Shown here: positions 8,894-46,164 of the stretch, one piece after another
Position numbering within the stretch: position 1 is the stretch's first letter
How the letters are laid out: every line of letters begins with the position of its first letter
From: an uncultured Candidatus Saccharibacteria bacterium
GTDB lineage: Bacteria; Patescibacteriota; Minisyncoccia; Phycocordibacterales; UBA9973
Assembly (NCBI GenBank): GCA_964401705.1
Contig: CAYNZJ010000001.1
Coordinates: forward strand, 69,648-117,327
DNA length: 47,680 nucleotides
Direction of reading: 5' to 3'
Position numbers and translations under genes: made by a program
The notes under the pieces: model-generated
Seen by the model: the letters and a program-made list of their open reading frames with translations, nothing else
The model's database searches: none
Told to the model about the DNA's origin: nothing

Positions 8894-11800
8894 TTAATTA
8901 TAATTAACTATTAAATTTAGTGTTTTGTTATTAGGAACAAACCATCTATGAAATTCGGCTGAATTACTAATTAAATCGATACAACCCTTCGACCCAGGAC
9001 TTAATCCTCCATGAACATAAAAACCTGTTTCTTTAATATTATTCTCATTTCTAATCTCAGTTCTTACTGACCCCCACGACTTAACAGAGCCTGGCCAAAG
9101 TCCTTTTGCTAATAATGATCCCCCTATCTGTCTTGTTGGTAAATCAAAAAAATATTCTGTATCTTTTGGGTTCAACTTCCAATTACCTTCTGGGATAGGA
9201 TCATAAATCTCTGGTTTCCCTGATGTTGCTTTCCATTTTAATGAGCCTATCTCTGAATCATATATTCTACTATAAACGCTAAGATACTCATTATTAAAAT
9301 GTAACTCAGCATCATTAGTTGGTAATGATATAAACATACCTTCTTTTATTTTATTACTATCTTTTATTCCACTTGCATTTGCTATTTGAGACATATTTAA
9401 ATTCATTTCAAAATGTTTATTGATTCTATTTGTTATCCCACCTAACGTATCCCCTTTTTCAACTTCTCCGGTTTTTATATTAAATTTTCCATCCGGATCA
9501 ATATATTTTAATGGATTATTTGATGCATATGAATAACTATTCCATCTTTGAGGGTCAAGTATTAGCAATTCAAGCTTGGAATTATCAATCTCACGAACAA
9601 TTGGATCTTGTTGCCAGAAACGACCTTCACCCCCATGTTGATAACGAGCCTGCATAAAATTAAGACCAGTATCAATATCGTATTCATGACCAGTGTATTT
9701 ATGTGATTCATCAAAAGCCCCTGACTTTATATTTGAAAGAATCTGACCAAAAGGATAATATTCAATATCTTGAACTTTTAACGAACCAGCACTATCTGTA
9801 ACGATTTGTGTCCCTCCTAAGTAATCTGGATGAATATAATAAATATTTGAAGTTGCTGGTGTTGAACCTTCAAGAGTTGCAATTAGTTGATTTTCTAAAT
9901 AAATATATCTTTTATTTATTGTAGCATTTTCTTCAAAATATTTGCTAGGGTTATAAATTACCCCTGAAGAATTTGTAGTCTTAATTCTTGCCCCTGAATA
10001 ATCATAAAGATAAGTATTCAATATTGGATTTGGTGGAGTAATTTTTTGGTATTTAATCAATTCGTTTCTATAACTATAAGTTAAAACTGTATTATCTGGT
10101 GGATTTCCAAATTCAATAACATTACCATTTTTATCATAAATATAATCAATCCCGCCAACAGATGTAGCTGCATGTGGGTTAGCATAAACACCTGGTGCAG
10201 TACCATCATATAAATAAGAACCAACCCCGGTTTTGTTTAATATATTACCAACGGCATTATAAGAATAATTTTCAGAATAACCAGACAAAGGTGAACTTAC
10301 TGTTTTCGTTGCACTTGTTAAACGGGATAATCCATCATAATTATAATTAAATATTTGTGGATTAAGTGGGTTAAAATTCTCAATTTTTTGAGTTAGATTT
10401 CCTATTGTATCCCATTGATAATTTGTATCAATTAAATTAGGGTATGCATACGTTACCGGGGCATTTAATAAATTTCTTATTAATTGATATTGTTTGGAAT
10501 CATCATAAAAATAATTTTGAGTTCTACCATTTGCATATTTAATAGATTCTTTTTGTCCTAATACGTTATAGGAGATGTTATCTATAACACTGACCCATGG
10601 GCTAGTTGGAGTATTTTTTCGATCAATGTTAATAATTTGACTCAAATCATTATAGGTATACCTTACTAATAATTGGTCTGGGTATTTTATACTTAAAATA
10701 TTTCCTTGATTATCATATTCATAAAACAAACTCCATTTTTTTGTACCTAAAGATGTTGATTCTTCAGAAATTAACCCTCTGTTTGTATATATAAAATTTT
10801 TAATACTGGATCCAATTCGACTAACACTACACAGTCTTCCTATACCATTAGAACATGCGTCATAACTATAAGTTATTTGAGGCATACCATTATTTATCTC
10901 TCCAGTTACTCTATTAAGAGAATCGTAATTGTATCTTACATTATTACCATTTGGTGTTATTTTTTGGATCAAATTATTATTATCATCATACGAATATGAA
11001 TAAATACCGTAATTAGTGTCTGACACCTCATGTAAATCAGTTAATGTTAAAATATTTCCTAATGGATCATATTTTATTGATCTAACATTCCCCAAAGCAT
11101 CATTTATCTCTACTAAATTACCTAAAGTATCCCAAACATATTTTGTAGTATGGCTATTTAACCCATCATATTCAATAACGCTAGTAATCTTCCCGAAAGC
11201 ATTATAGATAATGTCTTTTTTATTATTCTTAGAATCAACTACAGTTGTTTTATTTAAATTATAGATATTAGTTGTAGTTCCTAAAGTATTAGTGATATAC
11301 AATGGTCGATTTAAATAATCATAACTCATTGTAGTTGTTATATTGTTATTTAAATTCGGACCATTATAACTAGAGAAATTGCTATTTAAAGTATAAGGTA
11401 ATGTTCTTTTATATTCTCTCCCCATATTATCATAAACAATATCACTAGCTATAAAAACAGACCCGTTTTTTTCTATTTTTCTAATCTCTCTACCTAACCC
11501 GTCTAAAATAATATAAGATTCACCTGTAAATATTGAATTATAATAATTGATTTTTTTAATATAAGAAGGAAGACCAGGTGAAAAAGTATCGTTATAATAA
11601 TAAATTGTGCTTATAACAAGAGGTGTATAAGAAAGATCACTAGAATTTTTTTCAATCAAAGGCCTTCCAAAACCATCAAACTCTGTTTCTTTTTCAAAAC
11701 CATTAGGGTCAATAGATTTTAAAACACCTCCATGATTATAATCATAAGTATAACTTGTGGTTTGAGACAAAGCATTAGTTACACTGCTTGGGTATAAATA

Positions 11801-14800
11801 ATAATAATCATAATTTATACTGTTTGTATTATTACGAGCATCTTTGACACTAGTAATCAACCCAAAAATATTATATGTATTTTTTATAGTTTGATAATTA
11901 ACACCCCCAGACCATATAGATTCACTAGTTTTATTACCAACAGAGGCATAACCAAATTGCAAATTATCATAATAAAAGATTTTTTCAGAAATACGATTAC
12001 CATTGTAATCTTTAAGTATAATTTTTGAAGGAAGAATTAATCCACTACAAACTACAAAGTTACAATTTGTGTAACTATATTCTGTTTTACGAATATCATT
12101 ATCAACATCAATAAAACTTTGATAATTATTAACACTAACCAGACCAAATTCTATTTTGTTTAATAAATTACCATTTTGAGTATCGTATAAATATGTTTCT
12201 GCTGTATCATATGAATTTCCTCCGTTAAAAGTGCGTGAGATTAATTGTTCTGTATAAATAAAGTTCGAATTTGTATTTTGAATTTTATTATTAAACCATT
12301 TTATAGTATTTTGTTTTAATAAATTATTATTGGGATCAAGTAAATCTATTCTGTAAACTTTACCAATTTTAGAATAATTATCATTAGTCTCACCATTTGA
12401 TATATCAGTATCATTAGCTTGATGATAATATGTTATTTCTTTTGTGTTATCAGGATTAATTTGTACAACCTTACTAAAGCCTGCAAATTTGCGATCAAAA
12501 GCATTATTGTAATAATATGACCCACCAGAATATTCATAACTGGTTTTTGTTGTGTTACCCAAACCATCATTTGTAATGATACTTTCAACAGTATTTAAAT
12601 TTATTGGTAAATTTGGATTTAATAAATTCCCCGAGGTATCTTTATACTGAGAAGATTTTTTATAAGATATTTCTGATACTGCCCCTGTCCCATATTCAAT
12701 CTTTGAAAGCAAATCAGGTATTTTATTACCTTTGTTTATATAAGCAATTGTTACAGTTGGGGTACTATTTTGTGTTCTTAAAAAATCAACAAAACCATCA
12801 GAATTAATATCTGCGATTACAACAGGATTTGACATTAAAGAATTATTTGGAACTGTTAAATCCCAAATAGGTTTATAAACCCAACCATTACCAGTATTTA
12901 AATATGTACCTCGATTACCTCCTGTTTGATTAACTGGATCAATAACAATATCAATTAAATTATCACTATTTACATCTAAAAATCTAACCCCTTGATCATA
13001 GTAATTATTTGCTAGAATTATTGGTAATAACCAATTTGTATTATTAACCCACCCTGTATCACCCTTGTTTAAATACGCAAATGAAGGTTCTGTAAGATTA
13101 TACCAATGCTTAGATACTGCATCAGCTAAACCATCAGCATTAATATCAACCATTCTATTTGTGGTAAAAGTTAATTCATCAATAGGGGGATTCCAATTTG
13201 TAGTAATATTTGTAAAACCATAACCAGTATTTAATTGTTCACCAGTGATACTACCTTGACTCCTAATAATATCTGGTAAAGTGTCTCCATTTAAATCAAC
13301 TAAATGCGTACCATAATCATGAATATCAAATCTCCCGGTAAAAGGAATTTTAGGCTCCCAATTAAGGTCTTTAACCCAACCATTTATTTTGTCGTAAATA
13401 TATGTATGATAAATATCACCACGAACAAGACTATTATAACTACCACCATTGGCAGACTGAACAATATCTGGTAATTGATCGCCATTTATATCAGCAACAC
13501 GAACACCTTGGTCCCAAACATTACCATAAGCTCCGCCCCTAACCTCAAAATTCAAAAACGTTATTGGAATTTTAAAATCACTATCACCTTTCCAGTCTTT
13601 ATTTGTTGTATGGTTATAAAGTACTTTATCATAGTGAAAAGGTCCGGTACTAAGATTTTGTCCATATCTATCAACAGACTGTATTATATCAACCCAAGAA
13701 TCCCCTTTAATATCTATAGCCATTTCATGATTATCCCCCAAAAGTACTGGTGATGACCAATTTACACTATCTTCATCCCACCCAGGAGTTGTTTTTTGAT
13801 AAGTAAATTTTGAAGGTGGTAGTGTTTTTATAACACCGTTTTTATCTTTAGAAGATAAAGTTATTGAATTAATTAAAGATCTAAAACCATTGTCACCTGT
13901 TGTATATGTTATTACATATTTTTTAACCCAATTACCATTTACTTTTGCCTGTATTTCATTAATCCGGTAACTTGTTGTAACTTTAAAAGCTGTTTTATAT
14001 GATGTATATGAATCGCTTCTTATTTCTCTAAAAAACTCAACCTCAAAAATCCCAGGGGAATTTGAATGCTCTGTGTAATTTATTTTTTGTGGGTAAATTT
14101 CTCCAGCATCTTTATAATATTTATAAGTTATATAGTTCCCATTTAAATCACGTTTTTCATCAAGCATCCATTTATAAACTTGATTTGTATTTGATATATT
14201 ATCTTGTCTTGAATCTGCATTTGTTCCAAATTTATAAGTTACACCAGATTTATCTTTAAAAACCCAAGAATTATTTGTTAAAAAATATTCATGGAAACCT
14301 CCATTATCCACTCTTGGTCTATATACACCTGGACTTATTTCGATTAGTTCTCCATCTATTGAAGATGTAAAATATTTTTCTGAATAAATTTTTTCAGAAC
14401 CATTTTTATTTACTCTTTCAATATAAGGTATATCTAACCCCCAAGAATACCCAAAAACACCGCCATTTTCGTTCTCTTGTGAATTATAATTAATATTAAT
14501 TTCTGGAGTCATACCTAGTCTTCCTTGAGGTATAGTTATAGGATAACTATAATTCATAGCTCCTGTTATTAAATCTGTTTTTGGTTTTGATCCATAAAGA
14601 CCATCAAGTTTACCTGTTGGATATTCCGTTTTACCACCAACACCATTAGAAGATAGAGATTGTTCAGCTTCTGGGGTTATCTCTTTATTTTCATCATTAT
14701 TAAGATTAATATCAGGGTCTTCTTCTAATGGAACAACTTGATCAAGATTTTCTGGAACTACAGGATCTGTGGACAATTTATCTTGAGAGACATCTTTTAC

Positions 14801-14998
14801 TTCTAAAGTAGTTTCATCTATAATATCTGAATTTAAATTATCTAAAACTACATTTTCCTGAATTGTTTGGGAAGTTTGTTCTTCTGCAAAAACTACTGAT
14901 AATGGGCTTATAAAAAAACAAAAAACCACTAAATAAATTAGTGGCTTTTTATATAAAGTTAAATAATTATTAGTTTGCCATAAGAATGGTCTATTCAT
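8894..14998 (-). CDS. secreted SpvB/TcB-like + FG-GAP + RHS/YD-repeat polymorphic toxin (TcB-TcC-like cocoon) with a LysM/Tlde1-like C-terminal tip
   Basis: 2034 aa. Signal peptide (LVVFCFFISPLSVVFA|EE). SpvB-like motif TGAMNYSYPITIPQGRLGMTPEININYNS at about aa 145-175. Five D.N.D...D FG-GAP/VCBS-type repeats at aa 425-745 (DINGDQLPDIV, DLNGDTLPDII, DINADGLADAV, DVNSDNLIDIV, DINSDGFVDFL). TcdB-mid-like YEYSGGSYYYNNAFDRKFAGFSKV. Many YD repeats (Y.YD..GN). RHS end motif NPLKYIDPDGK at about aa 1828-1838, then a 196-aa tip. Confidence 0.9.
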   Translation of the reverse strand: MNRPFLWQTNNYLTLYKKPLIYLVVFCFFISPLSVVFAEEQTSQTIQENVVLDNLNSDIIDETTLEVKDVSQDKLSTDPVVPENLDQVVPLEEDPDINLNNDENKEITPEAEQSLSSNGVGGKTEYPTGKLDGLYGSKPKTDLITGAMNYSYPITIPQGRLGMTPEININYNSQENENGGVFGYSWGLDIPYIERVNKNGSEKIYSEKYFTSSIDGELIEISPGVYRPRVDNGGFHEYFLTNNSWVFKDKSGVTYKFGTNADSRQDNISNTNQVYKWMLDEKRDLNGNYITYKYYKDAGEIYPQKINYTEHSNSPGIFEVEFFREIRSDSYTSYKTAFKVTTSYRINEIQAKVNGNWVKKYVITYTTGDNGFRSLINSITLSSKDKNGVIKTLPPSKFTYQKTTPGWDEDSVNWSSPVLLGDNHEMAIDIKGDSWVDIIQSVDRYGQNLSTGPFHYDKVLYNHTTNKDWKGDSDFKIPITFLNFEVRGGAYGNVWDQGVRVADINGDQLPDIVQSANGGSYNSLVRGDIYHTYIYDKINGWVKDLNWEPKIPFTGRFDIHDYGTHLVDLNGDTLPDIIRSQGSITGEQLNTGYGFTNITTNWNPPIDELTFTTNRMVDINADGLADAVSKHWYNLTEPSFAYLNKGDTGWVNNTNWLLPIILANNYYDQGVRFLDVNSDNLIDIVIDPVNQTGGNRGTYLNTGNGWVYKPIWDLTVPNNSLMSNPVVIADINSDGFVDFLRTQNSTPTVTIAYINKGNKIPDLLSKIEYGTGAVSEISYKKSSQYKDTSGNLLNPNLPINLNTVESIITNDGLGNTTKTSYEYSGGSYYYNNAFDRKFAGFSKVVQINPDNTKEITYYHQANDTDISNGETNDNYSKIGKVYRIDLLDPNNNLLKQNTIKWFNNKIQNTNSNFIYTEQLISRTFNGGNSYDTAETYLYDTQNGNLLNKIEFGLVSVNNYQSFIDVDNDIRKTEYSYTNCNFVVCSGLILPSKIILKDYNGNRISEKIFYYDNLQFGYASVGNKTSESIWSGGVNYQTIKNTYNIFGLITSVKDARNNTNSINYDYYYLYPSSVTNALSQTTSYTYDYNHGGVLKSIDPNGFEKETEFDGFGRPLIEKNSSDLSYTPLVISTIYYYNDTFSPGLPSYIKKINYYNSIFTGESYIILDGLGREIRKIEKNGSVFIASDIVYDNMGREYKRTLPYTLNSNFSSYNGPNLNNNITTTMSYDYLNRPLYITNTLGTTTNIYNLNKTTVVDSKNNKKDIIYNAFGKITSVIEYDGLNSHTTKYVWDTLGNLVEINDALGNVRSIKYDPLGNILTLTDLHEVSDTNYGIYSYSYDDNNNLIQKITPNGNNVRYNYDSLNRVTGEINNGMPQITYSYDACSNGIGRLCSVSRIGSSIKNFIYTNRGLISEESTSLGTKKWSLFYEYDNQGNILSIKYPDQLLVRYTYNDLSQIINIDRKNTPTSPWVSVIDNISYNVLGQKESIKYANGRTQNYFYDDSKQYQLIRNLLNAPVTYAYPNLIDTNYQWDTIGNLTQKIENFNPLNPQIFNYNYDGLSRLTSATKTVSSPLSGYSENYSYNAVGNILNKTGVGSYLYDGTAPGVYANPHAATSVGGIDYIYDKNGNVIEFGNPPDNTVLTYSYRNELIKYQKITPPNPILNTYLYDYSGARIKTTNSSGVIYNPSKYFEENATINKRYIYLENQLIATLEGSTPATSNIYYIHPDYLGGTQIVTDSAGSLKVQDIEYYPFGQILSNIKSGAFDESHKYTGHEYDIDTGLNFMQARYQHGGEGRFWQQDPIVREIDNSKLELLILDPQRWNSYSYASNNPLKYIDPDGKFNIKTGEVEKGDTLGGITNRINKHFEMNLNMSQIANASGIKDSNKIKEGMFISLPTNDAELHFNNEYLSVYSRIYDSEIGSLKWKATSGKPEIYDPIPEGNWKLNPKDTEYFFDLPTRQIGGSLLAKGLWPGSVKSWGSVRTEIRNENNIKETGFYVHGGLSPGSKGCIDLISNSAEFHRWFVPNNKTLNLIVNYN
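8897..9253 (-). other. Tlde1/DUF2778-like (L,D-transpeptidase-fold) module at the extreme C-terminus of the RHS protein
   Basis: WKATSGKPEIYDPIPEGNWKLNP ... GFYVHGGLSPGSKGCIDL. The SG....PIP.G.W and H-x9-C (S.GCI) arrangement resembles DUF2778/Tlde1 and the YkuD catalytic His/Cys. Recalled from memory of the family, not searched. Confidence 0.5.
9323..9469 (-). other. LysM-like peptidoglycan-binding module within the RHS C-terminal tip
   Basis: Tip residues about 6-54: VEKGDTLGGITNRINKHFEMNLNMSQIANASGIKDSNKIKEGMFISLP. This fits the LysM pattern (V..GDTL..IA......... L...N.l....i..Gq.l.iP). Confidence 0.55.
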
Positions 14999-15036: not shown

Positions 15037-15069
15037 ATTTAATTGTGGAAAACTCCCCTAATTATATCA

Positions 15070-15092
15070 ACTTGGAGGTCCGACCTCCAAGT
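15070..15092. repeat. REP-like 23-bp perfect palindrome, copy 1 (central C)
   Basis: ACTTGGAGGTC-C-GACCTCCAAGT. Lies 4 nt downstream of the RAYT stop codon and directly upstream of a TGATATAAT box facing the RHS gene. Confidence 0.9.
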
Positions 15093-15095
15093 AAG

Positions 15096-15719
15096 TTACT
15101 TTGGATCTAAATCTTCTTTCCTTTTACAAATATCTTTCCAAGTAATGTCAGCATATTTCTTATATTCTCCAACATTCGTATATTGCCCTAAAACTATACT
15201 GGTATCACAAATAGATTCATTGGTTTTGTTTAAATACTCATCAAGACTTGATTTACTCAACTTGGAGGTCGGACCTCCAAGTGAATCTAAGTTATTATAG
15301 TTAACATAAACAGATAAATGTAATAAATATCTATCGTCTGGTATATATTTAGATTTAAATTTACCTTGAAATAAGACACCATTCCTATTATATTTTTCAT
15401 TAAAATACATTGTGTACCCACCAAATCTTTGCATAAATTTTTCAATACCCTTGTCTATTAAGGGAGTTAAGATTAAATGAAAATGATTCGGATTAATACA
15501 ATACGCAACGATATCTACCAACTTGGAGGTCGGACCTCCAAGTGAATCTTTTCTAAAAGAATTTTCATAAATACTACCAATTGGTTTTTCTGTGTTAAAT
15601 TCTATAAGACTTTGCACAAAACGATTTAGATCTTCTTTATCTAAAATTATATCGCGTTTATCTGACCCACGATTATAGATATGATAGTATTGCCCTATTT
15701 CAAAACTATGCTTTCTCAT
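15096..15719 (-). CDS. IS200-like Y1 (HUH) transposase / REP-associated tyrosine transposase (RAYT)-like
   Basis: 207 aa. YHIYNRGSDKRDIILDKEDLNRF, HUH motif NPNHFHLIL, GVLFQGKFKSK, and a Tyr-containing YVNYN motif. Flanked and interrupted by the 23-bp palindrome. Confidence 0.8.
   Translation of the reverse strand: MRKHSFEIGQYYHIYNRGSDKRDIILDKEDLNRFVQSLIEFNTEKPIGSIYENSFRKDSLGGPTSKLVDIVAYCINPNHFHLILTPLIDKGIEKFMQRFGGYTMYFNEKYNRNGVLFQGKFKSKYIPDDRYLLHLSVYVNYNNLDSLGGPTSKLSKSSLDEYLNKTNESICDTSIVLGQYTNVGEYKKYADITWKDICKRKEDLDPK
15260..15282. repeat. REP-like palindrome, copy 2 (central G), inside the RAYT CDS
   Basis: ACTTGGAGGTC-G-GACCTCCAAGT within the shared 31-mer CAACTTGGAGGTCGGACCTCCAAGTGAATCT. 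Encodes DSLGGPTSKL in frame. Confidence 0.9.
15521..15543. repeat. REP-like palindrome, copy 3 (central G), inside the RAYT CDS
   Basis: Same 31-mer as copy 2. It also encodes DSLGGPTSKL in frame, just upstream of the HUH motif. Confidence 0.9.
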
Positions 15720-15733
15720 ATAATTATTATACT

Positions 15734-15756
15734 ACTTGGAGGTCCGACCTCCAAGT
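15734..15756. repeat. REP-like palindrome, copy 4 (central C), overlapping the RAYT promoter
   Basis: On the minus strand: ACTTGGAGGTCGGACCTCCAAGT-AG-TATAAT-AATTAT-ATG. The palindrome supplies a TTGGAG -35-like hexamer (15749-15754) and the 17-nt spacer. Confidence 0.9.
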
Positions 15757-15853
15757 AAAGTACAAGTTGGATTTGTGGTGGGGGGGGTACAGATGGGGGT
15801 CCTTGTTTTATCTGTTTTGGTAGGAATTTTTTTATTATTATTTATTTTTATTT

Positions 15854-17584
15854 TTAAATTTTATGGGAATTAGAATGAGATTCTTTGATAATATGGTTTT
15901 TAAGATATTCCATAGTTCCCCCGACTTTTTTACCTGGGTTTAGTATATTGTTTTTATCAAAAGTATCTTTTGTTTGTTTAAATAAATCATAAACATACGG
16001 GCCAAATTGTTGTAATAAAAATGGGGTTCGGATGATACCATCATTATGTTCGGCGGTTATTGAACCATTATATTTTAATACAAGGTCATAAACTTTTTCT
16101 GAAACTTCAATAATTATTTGTGCGGTTTTGGGGTCACTAAAATCCATAAGTGGGATAATATGGAAATTACCATTACCAGCATGGCCCGCTATGGTATAAG
16201 TTATTTTATAATTATTTAATAAACTAGTAAGCTCGGGTAAAAATTCGGGTAATGAATTTGGCGGAACAATAACATCATCAATAAATGGTGCTGTATGTTT
16301 GTTCTTAATATGTTTACGAAGAAGAGCAAAGCTCTCGCGACGAATATCCCAATATTTTGAAGCTTCTCTTTCGGTTTTTATGATCCGAGATTTATAATTA
16401 AATAATTTTATTTTTTCCAAAAGACCAACAGCATTGTTGTTCACCACTAATTCATTATCGCCAGAGAATTCAATAAGTAAAACTAGTTTTGGAATTCCGC
16501 CCAGTAACATCATCAAGGCTTCTGGCAGAAAGCTTGCCATGAATTTAATCATCCCCAAAAGGCCTTTATTTTTAAGAAAATCTGGGAAAAACTTTATTGC
16601 TAATTTCATAGTATCTTGGTCATAGGATTCTATGCTTTCAGGTTTAAAAGGTAAAATAAAATCAACCAAAGAACCCAGATTCTTTAGATCTTTCATAAAG
16701 ACAACAACGAGTTTGGTATGTTTTTTGACTTCAACTAAATGAAGAGTTATTTTAGTGACGATACCCAAAGTACCCTGGGACCCAACGATTAATTTAGTTA
16801 AATCAAAGATTTCTTTTTCTTCATCCCAAACATTCCAAAGATAATACCCTGCAGAATTTTTACTAACATTTGGTTTTGCTTTTGTTATTTCTCTTTTGTT
16901 GTTTTGAATTATTTGGAAAATATTTTTATAAATATCACCTTCAAAATCATTTTGTCCAATTTTGACGTATAATTCATTTTTAGTTAGTGGTTTTACCGTA
17001 TATTCATAACCATCAGCAAATACAACATTAAGCTCTTTGATGTAATCTTCGGTTTTACCATAAGATAAACTTTTTTCACCGGCGGAATTATTACCAACCA
17101 TTCCACCCATAGCATTAATGCTTTTAGATGCTGTATAGCAAGGTAAAATTAAACCAAGTTTTAGTGTTTCTTGTTCGAAATCACGATAAAAACACCCTGG
17201 TAGTACGGTGGCTTTACCTGAAATTGTTACAGGATATGATTGGTTAAACATTGGCTTGATTGAAAAATGATCAACCTTTACTACTGACTCAACCATATTC
17301 ATGTATCGAGTAAAATCCATAACAATGGATTCGCCAATTGCTCCTCCGGACATACAAGTACCAGCTGAACGTGGAGTAATAGATAAATTAGGATATGTAT
17401 CTTTGTTTTTATTTATAAAACGAACCAAATTTTGAATATCTAGAGAGTCTTTAGGATAAACAACTATTTGTGGACGAATGACAAAAATACTGGCATCATG
17501 TGAATATTTTTCCAAAGTTTCATCTGTTATATCAACATCACCCTTAAAGAAAATTTTAATTTCGTTCACTAATTTTTCTATCAT
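15854..17584 (-). CDS. FAD-binding oxidoreductase (GlcD / D-lactate dehydrogenase-like)
   Basis: FAD-binding PCMH-type region (PRSAGTCMSGGAIGESIVMDF, GSQGTLGIVTKITL) and a C-terminal GSITAEHNDG region. I moved the start to the ATG at 17582-17584 (MIEKLVNE) because the track's longer ORF overlaps the upstream terminator hairpin. Confidence 0.8.
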   Translation of the reverse strand: MIEKLVNEIKIFFKGDVDITDETLEKYSHDASIFVIRPQIVVYPKDSLDIQNLVRFINKNKDTYPNLSITPRSAGTCMSGGAIGESIVMDFTRYMNMVESVVKVDHFSIKPMFNQSYPVTISGKATVLPGCFYRDFEQETLKLGLILPCYTASKSINAMGGMVGNNSAGEKSLSYGKTEDYIKELNVVFADGYEYTVKPLTKNELYVKIGQNDFEGDIYKNIFQIIQNNKREITKAKPNVSKNSAGYYLWNVWDEEKEIFDLTKLIVGSQGTLGIVTKITLHLVEVKKHTKLVVVFMKDLKNLGSLVDFILPFKPESIESYDQDTMKLAIKFFPDFLKNKGLLGMIKFMASFLPEALMMLLGGIPKLVLLIEFSGDNELVVNNNAVGLLEKIKLFNYKSRIIKTEREASKYWDIRRESFALLRKHIKNKHTAPFIDDVIVPPNSLPEFLPELTSLLNNYKITYTIAGHAGNGNFHIIPLMDFSDPKTAQIIIEVSEKVYDLVLKYNGSITAEHNDGIIRTPFLLQQFGPYVYDLFKQTKDTFDKNNILNPGKKVGGTMEYLKNHIIKESHSNSHKI

Positions 17585-26653: not shown

Positions 26654-27709
26654 CTATTTAATACTCTGCCCTGTTTTAATCACATGATCAACTAATGTAT
26701 TTGTATACCCCATTTCGTTGTCATACCATGCAAGGACTTTTACCAAATTACCACCAACAACGCGAGTCATTTCAAGGTCAGCAATTGATGCATGAGAGTT
26801 ACCCAAGATATCGCTAGATACTAACGGCTGTGTTGTAACTGCAAAAACATTTGACCATACTGGTGAAGATGCAGCATCGGTAAGGATTTTATTTACCTCT
26901 TCTACTGTTGTTGGACGCTTGGCAATAAAAGTAATGTCCGCAATTGACCCCGCTGGTACTGGCACACGCAGTGATATACCATCAAATAAATCAGTTAATT
27001 CCGGATAAGCTTTAGTAACAGCAATTGCTGCCCCGGTTGAAGATGGCACAATATTTTGCGCAGCAGCGCGACCCTCACGGAAATCTTTTTTATTTGGACC
27101 ATCAACTATGCCTTGGGATGCAGTGTATCCATGAGTAGTAGATAAAATTGCCTTTTCAATACCAATAGTAGAATTTAAAATTCCAATTACAGGACTTGCG
27201 GCATTTGTAGTACAAGATGCATTACTAGTAACATCACATGTGCCAAATTTATTTTCATTAACGCTCATTAAAATAGTTTCGCCTAGTATTGTAGTATCTT
27301 CCCCAGCTTTAGCAGGAGCAGAAATTACAACTTTTTTAGCACCGGCTTTGATATGAATATTGGCTTTATCATATGCAGTAAAAAGACCAGTTGATTCTAC
27401 CACAACATCAATTCCTAATTGCCCCCATGGTAATTCCATTGGATCTTTTTTAGCATAGACTGCAATTTTTTTACCATCAATAATAATTTCCCCCGGAATA
27501 ATTCCGTCAGTAGATGCTGTCCCAGATACATCATGATTCCAAGTACGGTAAACAGTATCGTATTTTAATAAATACGCCATATTAGCAACATCACCCAAAT
27601 CATTAACCGCAACTATTTCAATCTCTGGCCGGTCCCATGCTATTTTTGCAAATGCACGCCCAATCCGCCCAAAACCATTTATCGCAACCCTTATTTTCTT
27701 ATTTTCCAT
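26654..27709 (-). CDS. gap: glyceraldehyde-3-phosphate dehydrogenase (type I)
   Basis: 351 aa. INGFGRIGR, SNASCTTN (catalytic Cys), WYDNEMGY. Confidence 0.95.
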   Translation of the reverse strand: MENKKIRVAINGFGRIGRAFAKIAWDRPEIEIVAVNDLGDVANMAYLLKYDTVYRTWNHDVSGTASTDGIIPGEIIIDGKKIAVYAKKDPMELPWGQLGIDVVVESTGLFTAYDKANIHIKAGAKKVVISAPAKAGEDTTILGETILMSVNENKFGTCDVTSNASCTTNAASPVIGILNSTIGIEKAILSTTHGYTASQGIVDGPNKKDFREGRAAAQNIVPSSTGAAIAVTKAYPELTDLFDGISLRVPVPAGSIADITFIAKRPTTVEEVNKILTDAASSPVWSNVFAVTTQPLVSSDILGNSHASIADLEMTRVVGGNLVKVLAWYDNEMGYTNTLVDHVIKTGQSIK

Positions 27710-27727
27710 ATGGGACTATTATATCAT

Positions 27728-27955
27728 TTATTCCCCTAGATATTCAAACCGAGGACCAGAATAACTATCTATTTCTATATGGTCAAAAAACATAGCTTCT
27801 GGACGTGCATAAATCCGCCAACCAGTGTGGGCAATATCGGTTTGTCTTTCATAAACAATTAAAGGTTCCCCATTCTCGCTATGTCTAGCAAGGGTAATAA
27901 TTTTATAAGTATCACCTTTATAATGTTTATATAATTGCCCAGGTTTTATTTCCAT
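27728..27955 (-). CDS. DUF1653-like small protein
   Basis: 75 aa. YKHYKGDTYKIITLARHSE...LIVYE...W.RP..MF fits the DUF1653 pattern as I remember it. Confidence 0.6.
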   Translation of the reverse strand: MEIKPGQLYKHYKGDTYKIITLARHSENGEPLIVYERQTDIAHTGWRIYARPEAMFFDHIEIDSYSGPRFEYLGE

Positions 27956-28056
27956 AGTTATTTTTTAACTACCTTTTTTGGTTTTTTTACTTCTTTTCTT
28001 TGTCTATTATCACCTTTTCCCATAAATAAATTTAGATTAAATTAATAATTTAACGA

Positions 28057-29505
28057 CTATTTGAGTAACTCTACTAATACTTCTTTTGCTATCTGAGGAT
28101 TTGCGCTACCGTTAGACTCTTTCATTATTTTACCAACTAGTGACATTATAGCGTTTTCTTTACCGGATTTATAAGACGCGACAACTTCTGGATTTTCATT
28201 AATCAATTTTTGAGCTAGATTTTTTAAAAAGTCTGGATCATTCTTTTGAATCAAATCATGTTCTATTGCATAATCCCGAGGATTAGTTGGAGTCTTTACC
28301 ATTACAGCTAAAATATCTTTAACCCCGCGACTAGATAATTCGCCATCTTTAGCCATCTTCATTAATTCTCCAAAATCATTAGGAGTTGGGAGTAATGCAT
28401 CCTTGTCGGCCTTCATAATACCCGCCAAGTCGGACGTAATATAGTTAGCAATTGTTTGTGCAAGACTATTGTCATCAACTTGTTTAGTTATGGCTTCAAA
28501 ATAATCTGCCATTACTATATCGTTTACAAAAACTTCAACATCACTATCTTTAATCCCAAAATCTTTAATAAATCTTTCTCTTTTATTCCATGGTAATTCT
28601 GGTAAATTATTTTTTACATCATCCAAATCATACATTGAATGTAAATAAAGTTTAGGTAAATCTGGTTCAGGGAAATATCGATAGTCTTCAGCGTTTTCTT
28701 TGCTACGTTGAGATACTGTCATTTGTTTGTTTTCATCCCAACCACGAGTTTCTTTAATGATTTCATCTTGCCTACCATTTTCCCACAAATCGGTCATTCT
28801 TTTTATTTCATATTCGGCAGCCTTTTTAGCTGATTGAAAAGAATTAATGTTTTTAACTTCTACATATTTTTTATTTGGCTTACCAGGATCCGGCGAAACC
28901 GATACATTAACCTCGACTCGCATTTGCCCCATTTCCATATTAGCATCACTGGCTCCTAAATAACGAAGCAGAAGCTGTAATTCTTTTGCAAAAATTACAA
29001 TTTGTTCAGTATCTTTAATCACAGGTTCGGTTACTAATTCCATTAGTGGTACCCCAGCCCGATTGTAGTTAATTAAAGAATGATTACCTTTGTCATGCAT
29101 TGACGTTGCGGTATCTTCTTCTAAATGAATCCGTGTAATGTCAACTCCAGCTAATTTACCACCAGAAACTATTGGGAATTTGTATTGTGATATTTGATAA
29201 GCTTTTGGAATATCAGGATAAAAATAATTTTTGCGATCAAATTCTGTAAAGTCAGCAATATCAGCCCCAATAGCAAGACCAATACGCACCATATGGTCAA
29301 CGGCAGATTTATTAAGACTAGGCAAAGCCCCAGGCTGAGCACTACAAATAGCACAAATATTTGTATTGGGTTTTTCCTCTAAAGAGGATTCATTTAAATT
29401 GCTTGAAATATTTTTACACCCGCAAAAAGCTTTTGTGTTTGTTTTTAGCTCGGCATGGATTTCCAGACCCATTGTAACGTAGTATGGTCGTTTTGTGTCA
29501 TTCAT
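28057..29505 (-). CDS. gatB: Asp-tRNA(Asn)/Glu-tRNA(Gln) amidotransferase subunit B
   Basis: 482 aa. GLEIHAEL, NRAGVPLMELVTEP, VEVNVS, the YF.EPDLP motif and a GatB/YqeY C-terminal domain. TGCTATACT lies 6 nt upstream of the ATG. Confidence 0.95.
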   Translation of the reverse strand: MNDTKRPYYVTMGLEIHAELKTNTKAFCGCKNISSNLNESSLEEKPNTNICAICSAQPGALPSLNKSAVDHMVRIGLAIGADIADFTEFDRKNYFYPDIPKAYQISQYKFPIVSGGKLAGVDITRIHLEEDTATSMHDKGNHSLINYNRAGVPLMELVTEPVIKDTEQIVIFAKELQLLLRYLGASDANMEMGQMRVEVNVSVSPDPGKPNKKYVEVKNINSFQSAKKAAEYEIKRMTDLWENGRQDEIIKETRGWDENKQMTVSQRSKENAEDYRYFPEPDLPKLYLHSMYDLDDVKNNLPELPWNKRERFIKDFGIKDSDVEVFVNDIVMADYFEAITKQVDDNSLAQTIANYITSDLAGIMKADKDALLPTPNDFGELMKMAKDGELSSRGVKDILAVMVKTPTNPRDYAIEHDLIQKNDPDFLKNLAQKLINENPEVVASYKSGKENAIMSLVGKIMKESNGSANPQIAKEVLVELLK

Positions 29506-43978: not shown

Positions 43979-45745
43979 TTATTCTTCTATAAATCCGCCG
44001 GTTTGGTGACTCCAAAGTTCGGCATATATTCCGCCTTTATTTAATAATTCAGTATGTGTTCCATCTTCGGCAATTCCCCCATCTTCGAGTACTATTATCC
44101 GATCCATCTTTTGAATAGTTGACAATCTATGCGCTATTACAATTGTGGTTCTACCTTTCATAAGCTCAACAAAAGCTTTTTGAATATAATCTTCACTAAC
44201 GCTATCGAGCGAGCTTGTGGCTTCATCCAATATTAATACCGGTGAATCCTTAAGCATAGCCCGAGCTATAGCTACACGCTGACGTTCCCCGCCGGAAAGT
44301 TTAACCCCACGTTCCCCAACCAAAGTATCATAACCATTAGGAAGTTTTATAATAAAATCATGCGCATAGGCGGATTTAGCAACAGCGATAATTTCATCAT
44401 CCGATGCACCAACTTTACTATATGCAATGTTTTCTTTAATTGTCCTATGGAAAAGCATTGGCTCTTGAGGCACATATGAAATTACTTGACGTAAATCATC
44501 TTGTAAAACATTTTTAATATTTTGCCCATCAATTGTAATTTCGCCATTTGTTGTGTCAGTAAATCTTAATAACAATTTTGTAATTGTTGATTTACCCGCA
44601 CCCGAATGCCCCACAAGCCCAACATGGCTCCCTGAATTTATTTTTAAATTTAAGTTTTCAATTACTGGGTTACCATTTTGATAAGCAAAACTAACATCTT
44701 TAAATTGTATATCCCCGTCTTTCATTTTCAATTCTTCTGGATTCTTTGGGTCTTTTATTTCAATATCTAAATCAAAAATATCCACAACTTCTTTCATTTC
44801 AATTAATGACCTGACTATTCGTGTTATTGATTTACCTAAATTCCAAAGTATATCAAAAAGGTTAACCATATAACTTTGTAAAAGTATAATCATACCAACT
44901 GAGATTTTATCTGCATACCACATTTTTATTGCCATAAACATAATAACTATTTGCAAAACTCCCATCATTAAAGACTGGAATACTAACCTTGTATTAGCAT
45001 AATTCCATGCTTTCATTCTTTTAGTTTCTTCATCTTGAGTAACCTTTTTAAAACCTAATTTTTCAAAAAAACTATTACTAAATATTTTTATATTAAGAAT
45101 ATTTATTATTGAGTCTGAAAGTCTACCTGTAACAACAGAATCTGCTTCGGATTCTAATAAATCATATTTAATTTTTTGTTTTACAAAAACTATTGTTATT
45201 AATATATAAATAATAGACCATACAACAAAAACCCAGGCCATTATTGGGATTTTAATAAATAAAACAACTAAAATACCCCCCAAGGTAACTATTCCGAAAT
45301 ATATTTGAAAACTTACTGATTCAAAAAAGACATCAAATGATCTATTAAATCTTTTTGTTTTTGCAATGATACTACCTGTAAAATTATTAGAAAAGAAATT
45401 ATATGAATGGTTTAAAATTTTATTAAACGAAAAATCATAAAGTCTTTTCATGACTTTACTAGTAAAATAAGATTCCGTAAAACTAGCTGCCCGATAAACG
45501 ATTATATAAACCAAAATTATAGTACAAAGTAACAAAAGCAAATGTAAGGATTGATTAAATATAATACCTTTAGGTAAACCAGAAGATAAAGTATCAACCA
45601 AGTCTTTATATATAAATGGTTTTAAAATTAATTCAGCAATTATACCAATTCCATAAAATAAAAAAGTTAACACTAAAGACACCCAATGTTTTTTCATTTG
45701 GGGCCATAGGTAAAACAGTATTCGTTTAAAATTTATATCTTTCAT
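43979..45745 (-). CDS. ABC exporter, fused permease/ATPase (MsbA-like)
   Basis: 588 aa. Six-TM N-terminal half. Walker A GHSGAGKST, signature LSGGERQR, Walker B LILDEATS. Confidence 0.9.
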   Translation of the reverse strand: MKDINFKRILFYLWPQMKKHWVSLVLTFLFYGIGIIAELILKPFIYKDLVDTLSSGLPKGIIFNQSLHLLLLLCTIILVYIIVYRAASFTESYFTSKVMKRLYDFSFNKILNHSYNFFSNNFTGSIIAKTKRFNRSFDVFFESVSFQIYFGIVTLGGILVVLFIKIPIMAWVFVVWSIIYILITIVFVKQKIKYDLLESEADSVVTGRLSDSIINILNIKIFSNSFFEKLGFKKVTQDEETKRMKAWNYANTRLVFQSLMMGVLQIVIMFMAIKMWYADKISVGMIILLQSYMVNLFDILWNLGKSITRIVRSLIEMKEVVDIFDLDIEIKDPKNPEELKMKDGDIQFKDVSFAYQNGNPVIENLNLKINSGSHVGLVGHSGAGKSTITKLLLRFTDTTNGEITIDGQNIKNVLQDDLRQVISYVPQEPMLFHRTIKENIAYSKVGASDDEIIAVAKSAYAHDFIIKLPNGYDTLVGERGVKLSGGERQRVAIARAMLKDSPVLILDEATSSLDSVSEDYIQKAFVELMKGRTTIVIAHRLSTIQKMDRIIVLEDGGIAEDGTHTELLNKGGIYAELWSHQTGGFIEE

Positions 45746-45863
45746 CCCGTTAGAAGCAGGTCGCGATCTTTTTTAAAAATCAAAACTCTACTTTTTAAAT
45801 AATTATCAATAATTAAATAAGCACTGTTCCCGTTATTTATGCGTGACAGCGGCTTCTAACGGG
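45746..45863. repeat. about 120-bp inverted-repeat intergenic element, copy B (CCCGTTAGAAGC ... GCTTCTAACGGG)
   Basis: Left arm at 45746-45757 abuts the ABC-exporter ATG. Right arm at 45852-45863. The left arm shares about 19/23 nt with copy A, including TCGCGAT. On the minus strand an ATG at 45867-45869 opens MNPVRSRCHA* (45837-45869). Confidence 0.8.
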
Positions 45864-45876
45864 ATTCATTTACTAT

Positions 45877-46164
45877 TTATTTTGCGCCGAATTTAGTGAT
45901 GGCTTTACGAAATCCGCCTTTTTTGTCAGACAATTCTTTTGCCCCGCGAGTAACGGTAGCTACACCAACGCCAAGCTTTTCAGCAATTTCGCGTTGAGCA
46001 ATTCCAGATTCAAGCATTTTAACTATTTGCCAGCGACGAGCAATTTCTTCATACTCACCAGCAGTCAAAAGGTCATCTAAAAATTCATTTAACAAATTAC
46101 CCCCTGCCCCAGCAACTTTTTTAATAAGAGTGTTTATTTCTTTTTTGTATTCTTCCATGCTCAT
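45877..46164 (-). CDS. TrpR-related YerC/YecD-family DNA-binding protein
   Basis: 95 aa. LLT..E...IA.RW.IV..L..G..QREIA..LGV..ATVTRG helix-turn-helix pattern. Confidence 0.75.
   Translation of the reverse strand: MSMEEYKKEINTLIKKVAGAGGNLLNEFLDDLLTAGEYEEIARRWQIVKMLESGIAQREIAEKLGVGVATVTRGAKELSDKKGGFRKAITKFGAK

Follow-up and report, generated by a model that had tools for sequence, protein, structure and literature searches.

A candidate REPtron-like cassette in Patescibacteria: a Y1 HUH gene with copies of one hairpin at its borders and in its reading frame

RAYT proteins, with the repetitive extragenic palindromes (REPs) that belong to them, serve as the textbook example of a domesticated transposase that co-evolves with short hairpins. 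Joint shifts in specificity are hard to follow in this system because the hairpins lie scattered over the genome. In the REPtron of Escherichia coli (YafM, PDB 4ER8), the gene for a Y1 HUH protein is bracketed by cognate hairpins that are also dispersed, and a genome contains one or a few divergent paralogs, each with its own hairpin type. In the insertion sequence IS200, a hairpin in the 5' region limits expression. The Rickettsia palindromic elements (RPEs) were reportedly described by Ogata et al. in 2000. Patescibacteria, with their tiny genomes, are thought to be poor in repeats. Here we analyze a stretch of 47,680 nucleotides from an uncultured patescibacterium (contig CAYNZJ010000001.1 of assembly GCA_964401705.1, positions 69,648 to 117,327), hereafter called the window. 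In it, a gene for a Y1 HUH protein is accompanied by four copies of one 23-nt palindrome, one on either side and two within the reading frame.

The closest described relatives of this arrangement belong to class 2 of the tnpAREP genes. According to Quentin, Siguier, Chandler, and Fichant (2018, PMC6006769), class 2 carries the tyrosine signature Y-x3-N-P, subclass 2.1 is without REP association, and subclass 2.4 genes have REPs inserted within the gene with the frame kept, which is presented as a unique feature. Colonization of a RAYT gene in frame by its own REP is therefore already known in principle, at positions other than those seen here. A first, sequence-only reading of the window had known of no description of such colonization. 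REPs also occur within many unrelated genes (Di Nocera et al. 2013, PMC3733652).

The palindrome of the window, ACTTGGAGGTC-N-GACCTCCAAGT, is perfect over its 23 nt and is present in exactly four copies. A scan of the window that allowed up to three mismatches found no fifth copy, with 0 expected from 100 shuffles, and the generic pattern CTTRG-N11-CYAAG gave no sites in the window beyond the same four. Copies 1 and 4, numbered along the plus strand, flank the gene; they have about 30 nt in common at 93% identity, and their central base on the plus strand is C. Copies 2 and 3 have a central G and lie in the coding sequence, inside an identical 31-mer (15258-15288 = 15519-15549). Both internal 31-mers encode DSLGGPTSKL, at aa 58-67 for copy 3, which we call int1, and at aa 145-154 for copy 2, which we call int2. 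The palindrome proper spans approximately aa 60-67 and aa 147-154, respectively. When folded as single-stranded DNA (ssDNA), each copy reaches about -10 kcal/mol with a z score near -5, and the GC content of the palindrome is 57%, compared to 31% for the window. Rfam contains no match for the region (E<=1) or for the whole window (gathering thresholds).

These results uphold most of what the sequence-only reading had described. The four copies found nowhere else in the window withstood the mismatch scan and the shuffles, and the central bases, the identical 31-mer, the shared frame, and the doubled peptide were accurate in every detail. Its placement of one internal copy just before the HUH motif and the other just after the tyrosine motif was also correct, and its view of the gene as RAYT-like and bracketed by a cognate palindrome agrees with a Pfam Y1_Tnp match, the predicted fold, and the flanking copies. 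On balance, we favor reading 15070-15756 as a 687-bp REPtron-like cassette, made up of a class-2 Y1 HUH gene and four cognate REP-like hairpins.

The gene encodes an intact Y1 HUH protein, probably of class 2. Its HUH motif is H79-F-H81, preceded by N78 and located on a strand that covers residues 80-86 in the model, and its tyrosine motif is Y138-x3-N142-N143, followed by an 'SS' tail motif at S157-S158. H79, H81, Y138, N142, and S157-S158 are invariant in an alignment of 32 homologous sequences. At the last position of the class-2 signature Y-x3-N-P, the family has N or D in place of Pro. The Pfam profile Y1_Tnp matches with 26.6 bits, above its cutoff of 23, over a region limited to aa 66-140, and the NCBIfam profile REP_Tyr_transpos reaches 23.5 bits, far under its cutoff of 80. 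A profile search of PDB sequences returned no match, and the link to 4er8 comes by fold comparison only. For an AlphaFold (AF2) model built from 32 homologs (pLDDT 82, pTM 0.83), the best Foldseek match is 4er8_A, from the E. coli TnpA_REP-hairpin complex (E 1e-4, TM 0.49/0.59), followed by the TnpA proteins of IS608 and ISDra2. The sequence-only reading had also considered that the gene might be an inactivated relic. We reject this possibility: thousands of homologs retain an intact open reading frame (ORF), and the catalytic HUH and Tyr residues are invariant. Metatranscriptome contigs match 15385-15652 at 100% identity, a match that could also reflect DNA carry-over.

The protein belongs to a large family in which the arrangement of the window recurs. 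Databases contain 2937 homologs, most of which have a length of about 208 aa and a full-length identity of about 60%; their names or titles, where given, point to Patescibacteria. No homolog was found in phages. For the analysis of hairpins, we used the 80 best of at least 591 relatives in GTDB species genomes, which together with the window make 81 loci. These 80 (45-58% identity) come nearly all from metagenome-assembled genomes of Paceibacterota, Nomurabacteria, Giovannonibacteria, Moranbacteria, and similar groups. Scanning them for hairpins revealed the same layout: one hairpin precedes the ATG by approximately 40 nt, two lie inside the gene near +170-220 and +435-480, and one stands just past the stop codon, where the gap to the hairpin has a family median of 3 nt. 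All four hairpins are present in 25 of the 81 loci; the upstream, int1, and downstream hairpins are present in 20, the upstream, int2, and downstream hairpins in 11, and the flanking pair only in 5. Overall, a hairpin stands at the int1 site in 56/81 loci and at the int2 site in 45/81, so intact genes exist without int1 (at least 25/81), without int2 (at least 36/81), and without both (at least 12/81). A hairpin was called in 77 of the 81 loci, every one of them with a Y1 HUH gene, and the GC filter missed three loci with AT-rich hairpins. Two homologs of 223 aa (P0006 and P0007) end in ...LLGSPTSK; judging from the protein sequences only, their ORF appears to run on into a third hairpin-like copy, presumably the downstream hairpin.

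The invasion of this particular gene by its palindrome, as proposed earlier, does not fit these data, since homologs at 45-85% identity have equivalent peptides at both positions. Because the layout recurs throughout the family, a recent invasion can be rejected, and we conclude that the four-hairpin layout is an old, continually rewritten arrangement.

A sign of this rewriting is that the hairpins of a locus change together. Family hairpins follow the consensus ACTTGG-N(4-5)-loop-N(4-5)-CCAAGT, often widened to CACTTGG...CCAAGTG, and no GTAG or GTGG foot was seen among them. Nearly all share the ACTTGG/CCAAGT outer stem; further in, the next 4-5 bp and the loop vary between loci and match within a locus: over the 19-nt hairpin core, identity is 0.915 within loci and 0.608 between them, and over the inner 11 nt the values are 0.90 and 0.445. 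There are 26 inner-stem types, with 53 type changes on the 81-tip tree. Even close relatives differ, the stem type being AGGTC in the window, GTAGT in L093 (85% aa identity), and AAGTC in L095 (76%), in each case uniformly across the called copies of the locus. Pairing is maintained throughout these changes. At stem positions 2-10, 87-100% of the pairs are Watson-Crick; the variable positions show 2-4 pair types, and G-T pairs are almost lacking, a scarcity to be read with the caveat that hairpin detection tolerated one mismatch only and is biased accordingly. Structure at the RNA level was considered as well and is disfavored by the near lack of G-U-type pairs, subject to the same bias.

The encoded peptides follow suit, and those at the two positions co-vary within a protein (LGSKASKL twice, LGSSTTKL twice, or LGSRSTKL twice). 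Paralogs are divergent and number one or a few per genome, each with its own hairpin type; pairs with different hairpins in the same genome are L012/L018, L013/L024, L020/L052, and L029/L049. In mosaic loci (L019; also L029, L030, and L070), one copy is of a hairpin type found elsewhere in the same genome. To change a locus by point mutation would take two compensating changes per copy in each of 3-4 copies, so it is far more economical to suppose that the copies are taken from one source. We conclude that the hairpin copies in a locus are rewritten from a common pool.

The internal copies are subject to coding constraints that the flanking copies escape. Nearly all of them (96/98) are in one codon phase. 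This frame yields small polar residues in the pattern L-G-x-x-x-(S/T/A/P)-K, and in it codons i and 8-i are reverse complements of each other. The loop orientation of internal copies avoids TGA, TAA, and Phe codons; flanking copies occur in either orientation. We found no fixed rule relating the orientation of flanking and internal copies, with same and opposite orientations at about 50:50 for flank-internal pairs. The orientations of int1 and int2 agree in 18 cases and disagree in 5, an agreement explained by the coding constraints. Internal copies are also dense: there are 98 in approximately 52 kb of Y1 genes, compared to 21 cognate solo copies over the 382 kb that flank these genes.

The model and a comparison with outgroups indicate how the protein accommodates these copies. 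The int1 region has pLDDT <50 at aa 57-63 and forms a loop ahead of the HUH-leading strand. int2 is modeled with high confidence as an ordered coil following the tyrosine helix. The beta3-alphaC loop is short (aa 87-90). For the alignment, we used outgroups with 26-30% identity (Iodobacter, R. rubrum, and Sporomusa plasmids), and neither internal peptide is present in them. A loop of about 27 aa, consisting of NTxxPIGSIYENSF and a variable part, is specific to the family and missing from the outgroups; int1 occupies its variable, C-terminal half. At the other site, int2 takes the place of an ancestral ...AG(L/M)VxxPxDYxW... segment with no net change of length in the window. Thus, the two peptides are not the clean 10-aa insertions that had been suggested. 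We take the two internal sites to be permissive regions, one a disordered family-specific loop and the other the segment after the tyrosine helix.

Features of the cassette and solo copies of its palindrome in related genomes. Coordinates are those of the window unless a locus is named.
Feature	Position	Strand	Remarks
Palindrome copy 1	15070-15092		downstream flank; begins 3 nt past the stop codon
Palindrome copy 2 (int2)	15260-15282		in frame, directly after the catalytic tyrosine helix
Palindrome copy 3 (int1)	15521-15543		in frame, in a low-confidence loop just before the HUH-leading strand
Palindrome copy 4	15734-15756		upstream flank; its end is 14 nt from the ATG; within a promoter-like layout
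Y1 HUH gene	15096..15719	-	207 aa, probably class 2, RAYT/TnpA_REP-like
Promoter-like layout	15726..15754	-	TTGGAG 15754-15749, 17-nt spacer, TATAAT 15731-15726, 6 nt, ATG at 15719
Intragenic solo copies in housekeeping genes of related genomes	L091 4605-4627; L084 426-448; L083 7093-7115

Each of the known systems resembles the cassette in part. With the REPtron it shares the fold, the Y1 HUH protein, a gene bracketed by cognate hairpins that are also dispersed, and the few divergent paralogs with separate hairpin types. It differs in having no GT[AG]G foot, in its near-perfect 23-nt palindromes with the conserved ACTTGG/CCAAGT outer stem, in Y-x3-NN instead of Y-x3-NP, in the low number of solo copies, and in the two copies within the ORF. 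In addition, it has been inverted and relocated between close relatives. The likeness to subclass 2.4 lies in the in-frame intragenic REPs that accompany the flanking ones. According to PMC6006769, subclass 2.4 proteins have the motifs NH[IFV]H, WQ, and YIxNNP and no tail. In the present family, NHFH fits the first of these and Y[IV]N.NN fits the last in part, FQ replaces WQ, and an SS tail and C-terminal helices are present. The REPs of subclass 2.4 are of a long or 'double-foot' form and have GT[AG]G, a foot that is absent here, and the copies described here are set apart by lying before the HUH motif and after the tyrosine, confined to two fixed sites and a single frame. As far as we read that paper, it does not report concerted change between internal and flanking copies.

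In its SS tail and FQ motif, the window protein is closer to subclass 2.1 than to 2.4. The closest outgroups found by sequence, at 26-30% identity, are subclass 2.1/TIRYT Y1 proteins such as the plasmid 'transposases' of Iodobacter and R. rubrum, which have the NH.H, FQ/WE, and WSS motifs and the order of the core in common with it. Unlike the present family, they have YIELNPVRAG...DY.WSS and a C-terminal domain resembling a helix-turn-helix, and they are without the ~27-aa loop. The compact unit of about 0.7 kb, hairpin-Y1 gene-hairpin, which may move as a block, recalls IS200/IS608. In contrast to class 1 (IS200/IS605), there is no Y-x3-Q and no identical multicopy elements were seen; moreover, both ends of the cassette are the same palindrome, whereas the left-end and right-end structures of IS200/IS608 are distinct. 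As with intragenic REPs and RPEs, in-frame palindromes in housekeeping genes add loop peptides, but the units here are shorter (23-27 nt) and are enriched inside the gene of the cognate enzyme itself. Our literature search found no description of this clade of Patescibacteria, of two fixed sites outside the HUH-Tyr interval, of a single frame, or of concerted turnover between internal and flanking copies.

The cassette itself may also move as a unit. In L093/L094 (85% aa identity), which have the same RHS neighbor, the segment equivalent to 15070-15757 is inverted. The breakpoints fall within the two flanking palindromes, one each in copies 1 and 4, and the outer flanks are collinear. Each orientation is found in at least two independent assemblies. 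In L095/L096 (76%), gatB and gap border the cassette; in the window, these two genes are at ~28058 and ~27701 with no cassette between them. A third position is indicated for P0007. Comparing the filled gatB-gap interval of L095 with the window gap revealed no clean empty site or target sequence, the DNA being too diverged.

Sister genomes also reveal that the palindrome is dispersed. The exact 23-mer was found in other GTDB genomes, among them the sister genome CALAYS01, which has the RHS-cassette neighborhood in common with the window and in which 144 aa of the Y1 protein (L087) are 90% identical. At least five solo exact copies are present on other contigs of this genome, some of them in frame in genes, which bears out the earlier suggestion of a dispersed REP-like family. 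One lies in the gene for an M24 Xaa-Pro peptidase, where, judged against homologs of known structure in the PDB, it inserts 9 aa, SNLEVRPPS. Another is in frame in a phosphosugar mutase (PGM/PMM), and a third, in the TsaE-like protein of another genome, is in frame and reads LGGPTSK. The 21 solo cognate copies around the 81 genes amount to about 1 per 18 kb, and 4 of them are inside long ORFs. In the source samples, contigs of similar depth hint at dispersal; the Logan contigs, which are assembled sequences, break at the 31-mer repeats.

The upstream palindrome overlaps a promoter-like layout. Its left arm supplies the -35-like TTGGAG. This hexamer matches the -35 consensus at 3 of 6 positions, and a consensus promoter scan omitted the site. 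Among the 74 loci with an upstream hairpin, the hairpin center is exactly 26 nt before the ATG in 23, the window included, and a TATAAT-like hexamer follows the hairpin in 48, counted with a permissive pattern in AT-rich genomes. From this layout, a leaderless mRNA would be predicted, transcribed from a core promoter that contains the palindrome, and an autoregulatory role for the upstream copy is plausible. On the gene strand around copy 1 (15040-15092), a TATAAT lies 3 nt further on, facing the RHS gene, with the left-arm TTGGAG 18 nt upstream. By its sequence, the downstream hairpin may act as a portable -35 element for the neighboring gene.

Several observations concern the surroundings of the cassette. 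Immediately downstream is a 2034-aa RHS/YD-repeat ORF (8894-14998, minus strand). Its L093 ortholog has SpvB, FG-GAP, TEN_YD-shell, and RHS_repeat domains, and about 70% of its DNA is conserved between the sister genomes. On the other side, L093 contains approximately 2.5 kb of extra sequence (10650-13150) between the cassette and the gene for an FAD-linked oxidase, an interval corresponding to 15757-15875 in the window. The extra segment, absent from the window, contains one small ORF together with genes for an SLT_2 transglycosylase and for ribosomal protein L25. Just beyond the upstream palindrome, at ~15776-15806, is a G-rich tract, GTGGTGGGGGGGGTACAGATGGGGGTCC, the window as a whole having 31% GC; the tract is not present at the same junction in L093. 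The gatB-gap interval of the window (27701-28058) contains two small ORFs, one of them for a lysine-rich peptide of about 29 aa. Elsewhere in the window, a 12-nt inverted repeat, CCCGTTAGAAGC, at 45746-45863 has its arms 94 nt apart (-38.8 kcal/mol, z -4.9) and no Rfam match. It fills the intergenic gap between the ORFs 43979..45745(-) and 45877..46164(-), whose ortholog in a sister genome (L088 3673-3735) is occupied by a solo 23-nt palindrome instead.

How are the copies of a locus kept alike? We think it somewhat more probable than not that all copies, internal ones included, are substrates of a single ongoing copy-or-replace process, most likely driven by the encoded Y1 enzyme. The enzyme would cut and rejoin ssDNA at the ACTTGG/CCAAGT feet, preferentially in cis, and all copies, the two in the ORF among them, would be repeatedly overwritten from the current hairpin pool. 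The internal copies would persist because they sit in tolerant loops and in the single benign frame, encoding residues that the protein does not need. The upstream copy would probably double as an operator for autoregulation.

A number of points weigh against this proposal. Binding, cleavage, and strand transfer are activities ascribed to the window protein from its family, and the hairpins are without a GT[AG]G foot, the feature recognized by TnpA_REP of E. coli. The internal copies occupy two sites in one frame and are ~30-fold denser than solo copies. To account for this, a purely passive model must invoke hot spots or a strong bias toward action in cis; selection of the copies for a function would explain the pattern equally well. 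The internal copies have 31 nt in common, beyond the limits of the palindrome, and ordinary gene conversion is therefore also at work. On the 81-tip tree, the presence of int1 and int2 takes 15 and 21 steps, compared to ~21 and ~27 with shuffled tips, and 50 of 55 hairpin-less internal sites are at background level for hairpin vestiges; this phylogenetic signal is weak, and many gains and fast decay of internal copies cannot be separated. Finally, the 47.7 kb of the window contain no solo copies, the dispersal having been seen in the sister genome.

The main rival explanation takes the internal hairpins to be cis-acting sites under selection, at which the protein would bind or cut the gene or mRNA that encodes it and so limit expression or copy number. 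This is the self-recognition or autoregulation raised by the sequence-only reading. We regard it as unlikely, with a real but minor chance of being correct. It would account for two fixed sites, used in one frame, at a density ~30-fold above that of flanking DNA and often as perfect palindromes, and the upstream copy in its promoter-like layout already suggests feedback. Yet the internal copies are dispensable, as they are often absent from intact genes, and mosaic loci with a foreign type at one internal site fit promiscuous overwriting better. The scarcity of G-T pairs further speaks against structure at the level of RNA, within the limits of a detection that allowed one mismatch. Less probable still is that host recombination or replication slippage homogenizes the copies without the Y1 enzyme. 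The 31 nt common to the internal copies and the ~30 nt at 93% in the flanking ones could be products of such events, and homologous recombination can yield an inversion between palindromes. However, only ~12 bases are conserved across hairpin types, which is very short for RecA-type conversion, and replacement nonetheless crosses types. The strict association with Y1 HUH genes (77/77 hairpin-called loci) and the fold of a hairpin-bound RAYT point instead to the enzyme.

We give little credence to a view in which the internal hairpins are not passengers, either because the encoded peptides form a surface that reads the hairpin or because the four palindromes make up a self-rearranging on/off unit. 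In the former version, one DNA change would alter site and reader at once, which would explain the fast, locked co-variation. Bearing on these two versions, int2 is directly behind the catalytic helix in a high-confidence part of the model, and the inversion between the flanking pair demonstrably occurred. An inversion switch, in which recombination between int1 and int2, or between a flanking and an internal copy, would flip the HUH-Tyr core and turn the gene off and on, seems more improbable again. The palindromes are mutual inverted repeats and the sister lineage did invert between the flanking pair, but an inverted internal segment is found in 0/81 loci, and no inversion or excision joints could be scored in the source-sample data, which consist of assembled contigs broken at the 31-mer repeats. 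Hardly tenable, finally, is the idea that the peptides are an ancestral motif kept for protein function, with the palindromes as a by-product, or that the gene is a relic whose frame has stayed open by chance, the latter being contradicted by the conservation described above. Most homologs do have similar peptides at both positions, and to this extent the ancestral-peptide check raised by the sequence-only reading came out in favor of ancestry. But the peptides are slaved to the hairpin of each locus: they change along with the non-coding copies that flank the same gene and preserve the complementarity of codons i and 8-i, int1 lies in a disordered loop, and both peptides are missing from the outgroups, unlike an ordinary ancestral motif.

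The cassette family is of value as a natural record of how an enzyme and its hairpin co-evolve. Each gene carries up to four current hairpins, two of them coding for protein, so that thousands of metagenomic genes record enzyme and site together. The family makes testable the co-evolution of Y1 enzymes with their hairpins, the mechanism by which hairpins are rewritten, and the tolerance of the HUH fold for loops encoded by palindromes. For Patescibacteria, it represents a REP-like system whose hairpins enter housekeeping proteins in frame and are a source of assembly breaks and inversions in genomes of the candidate phyla radiation (CPR).

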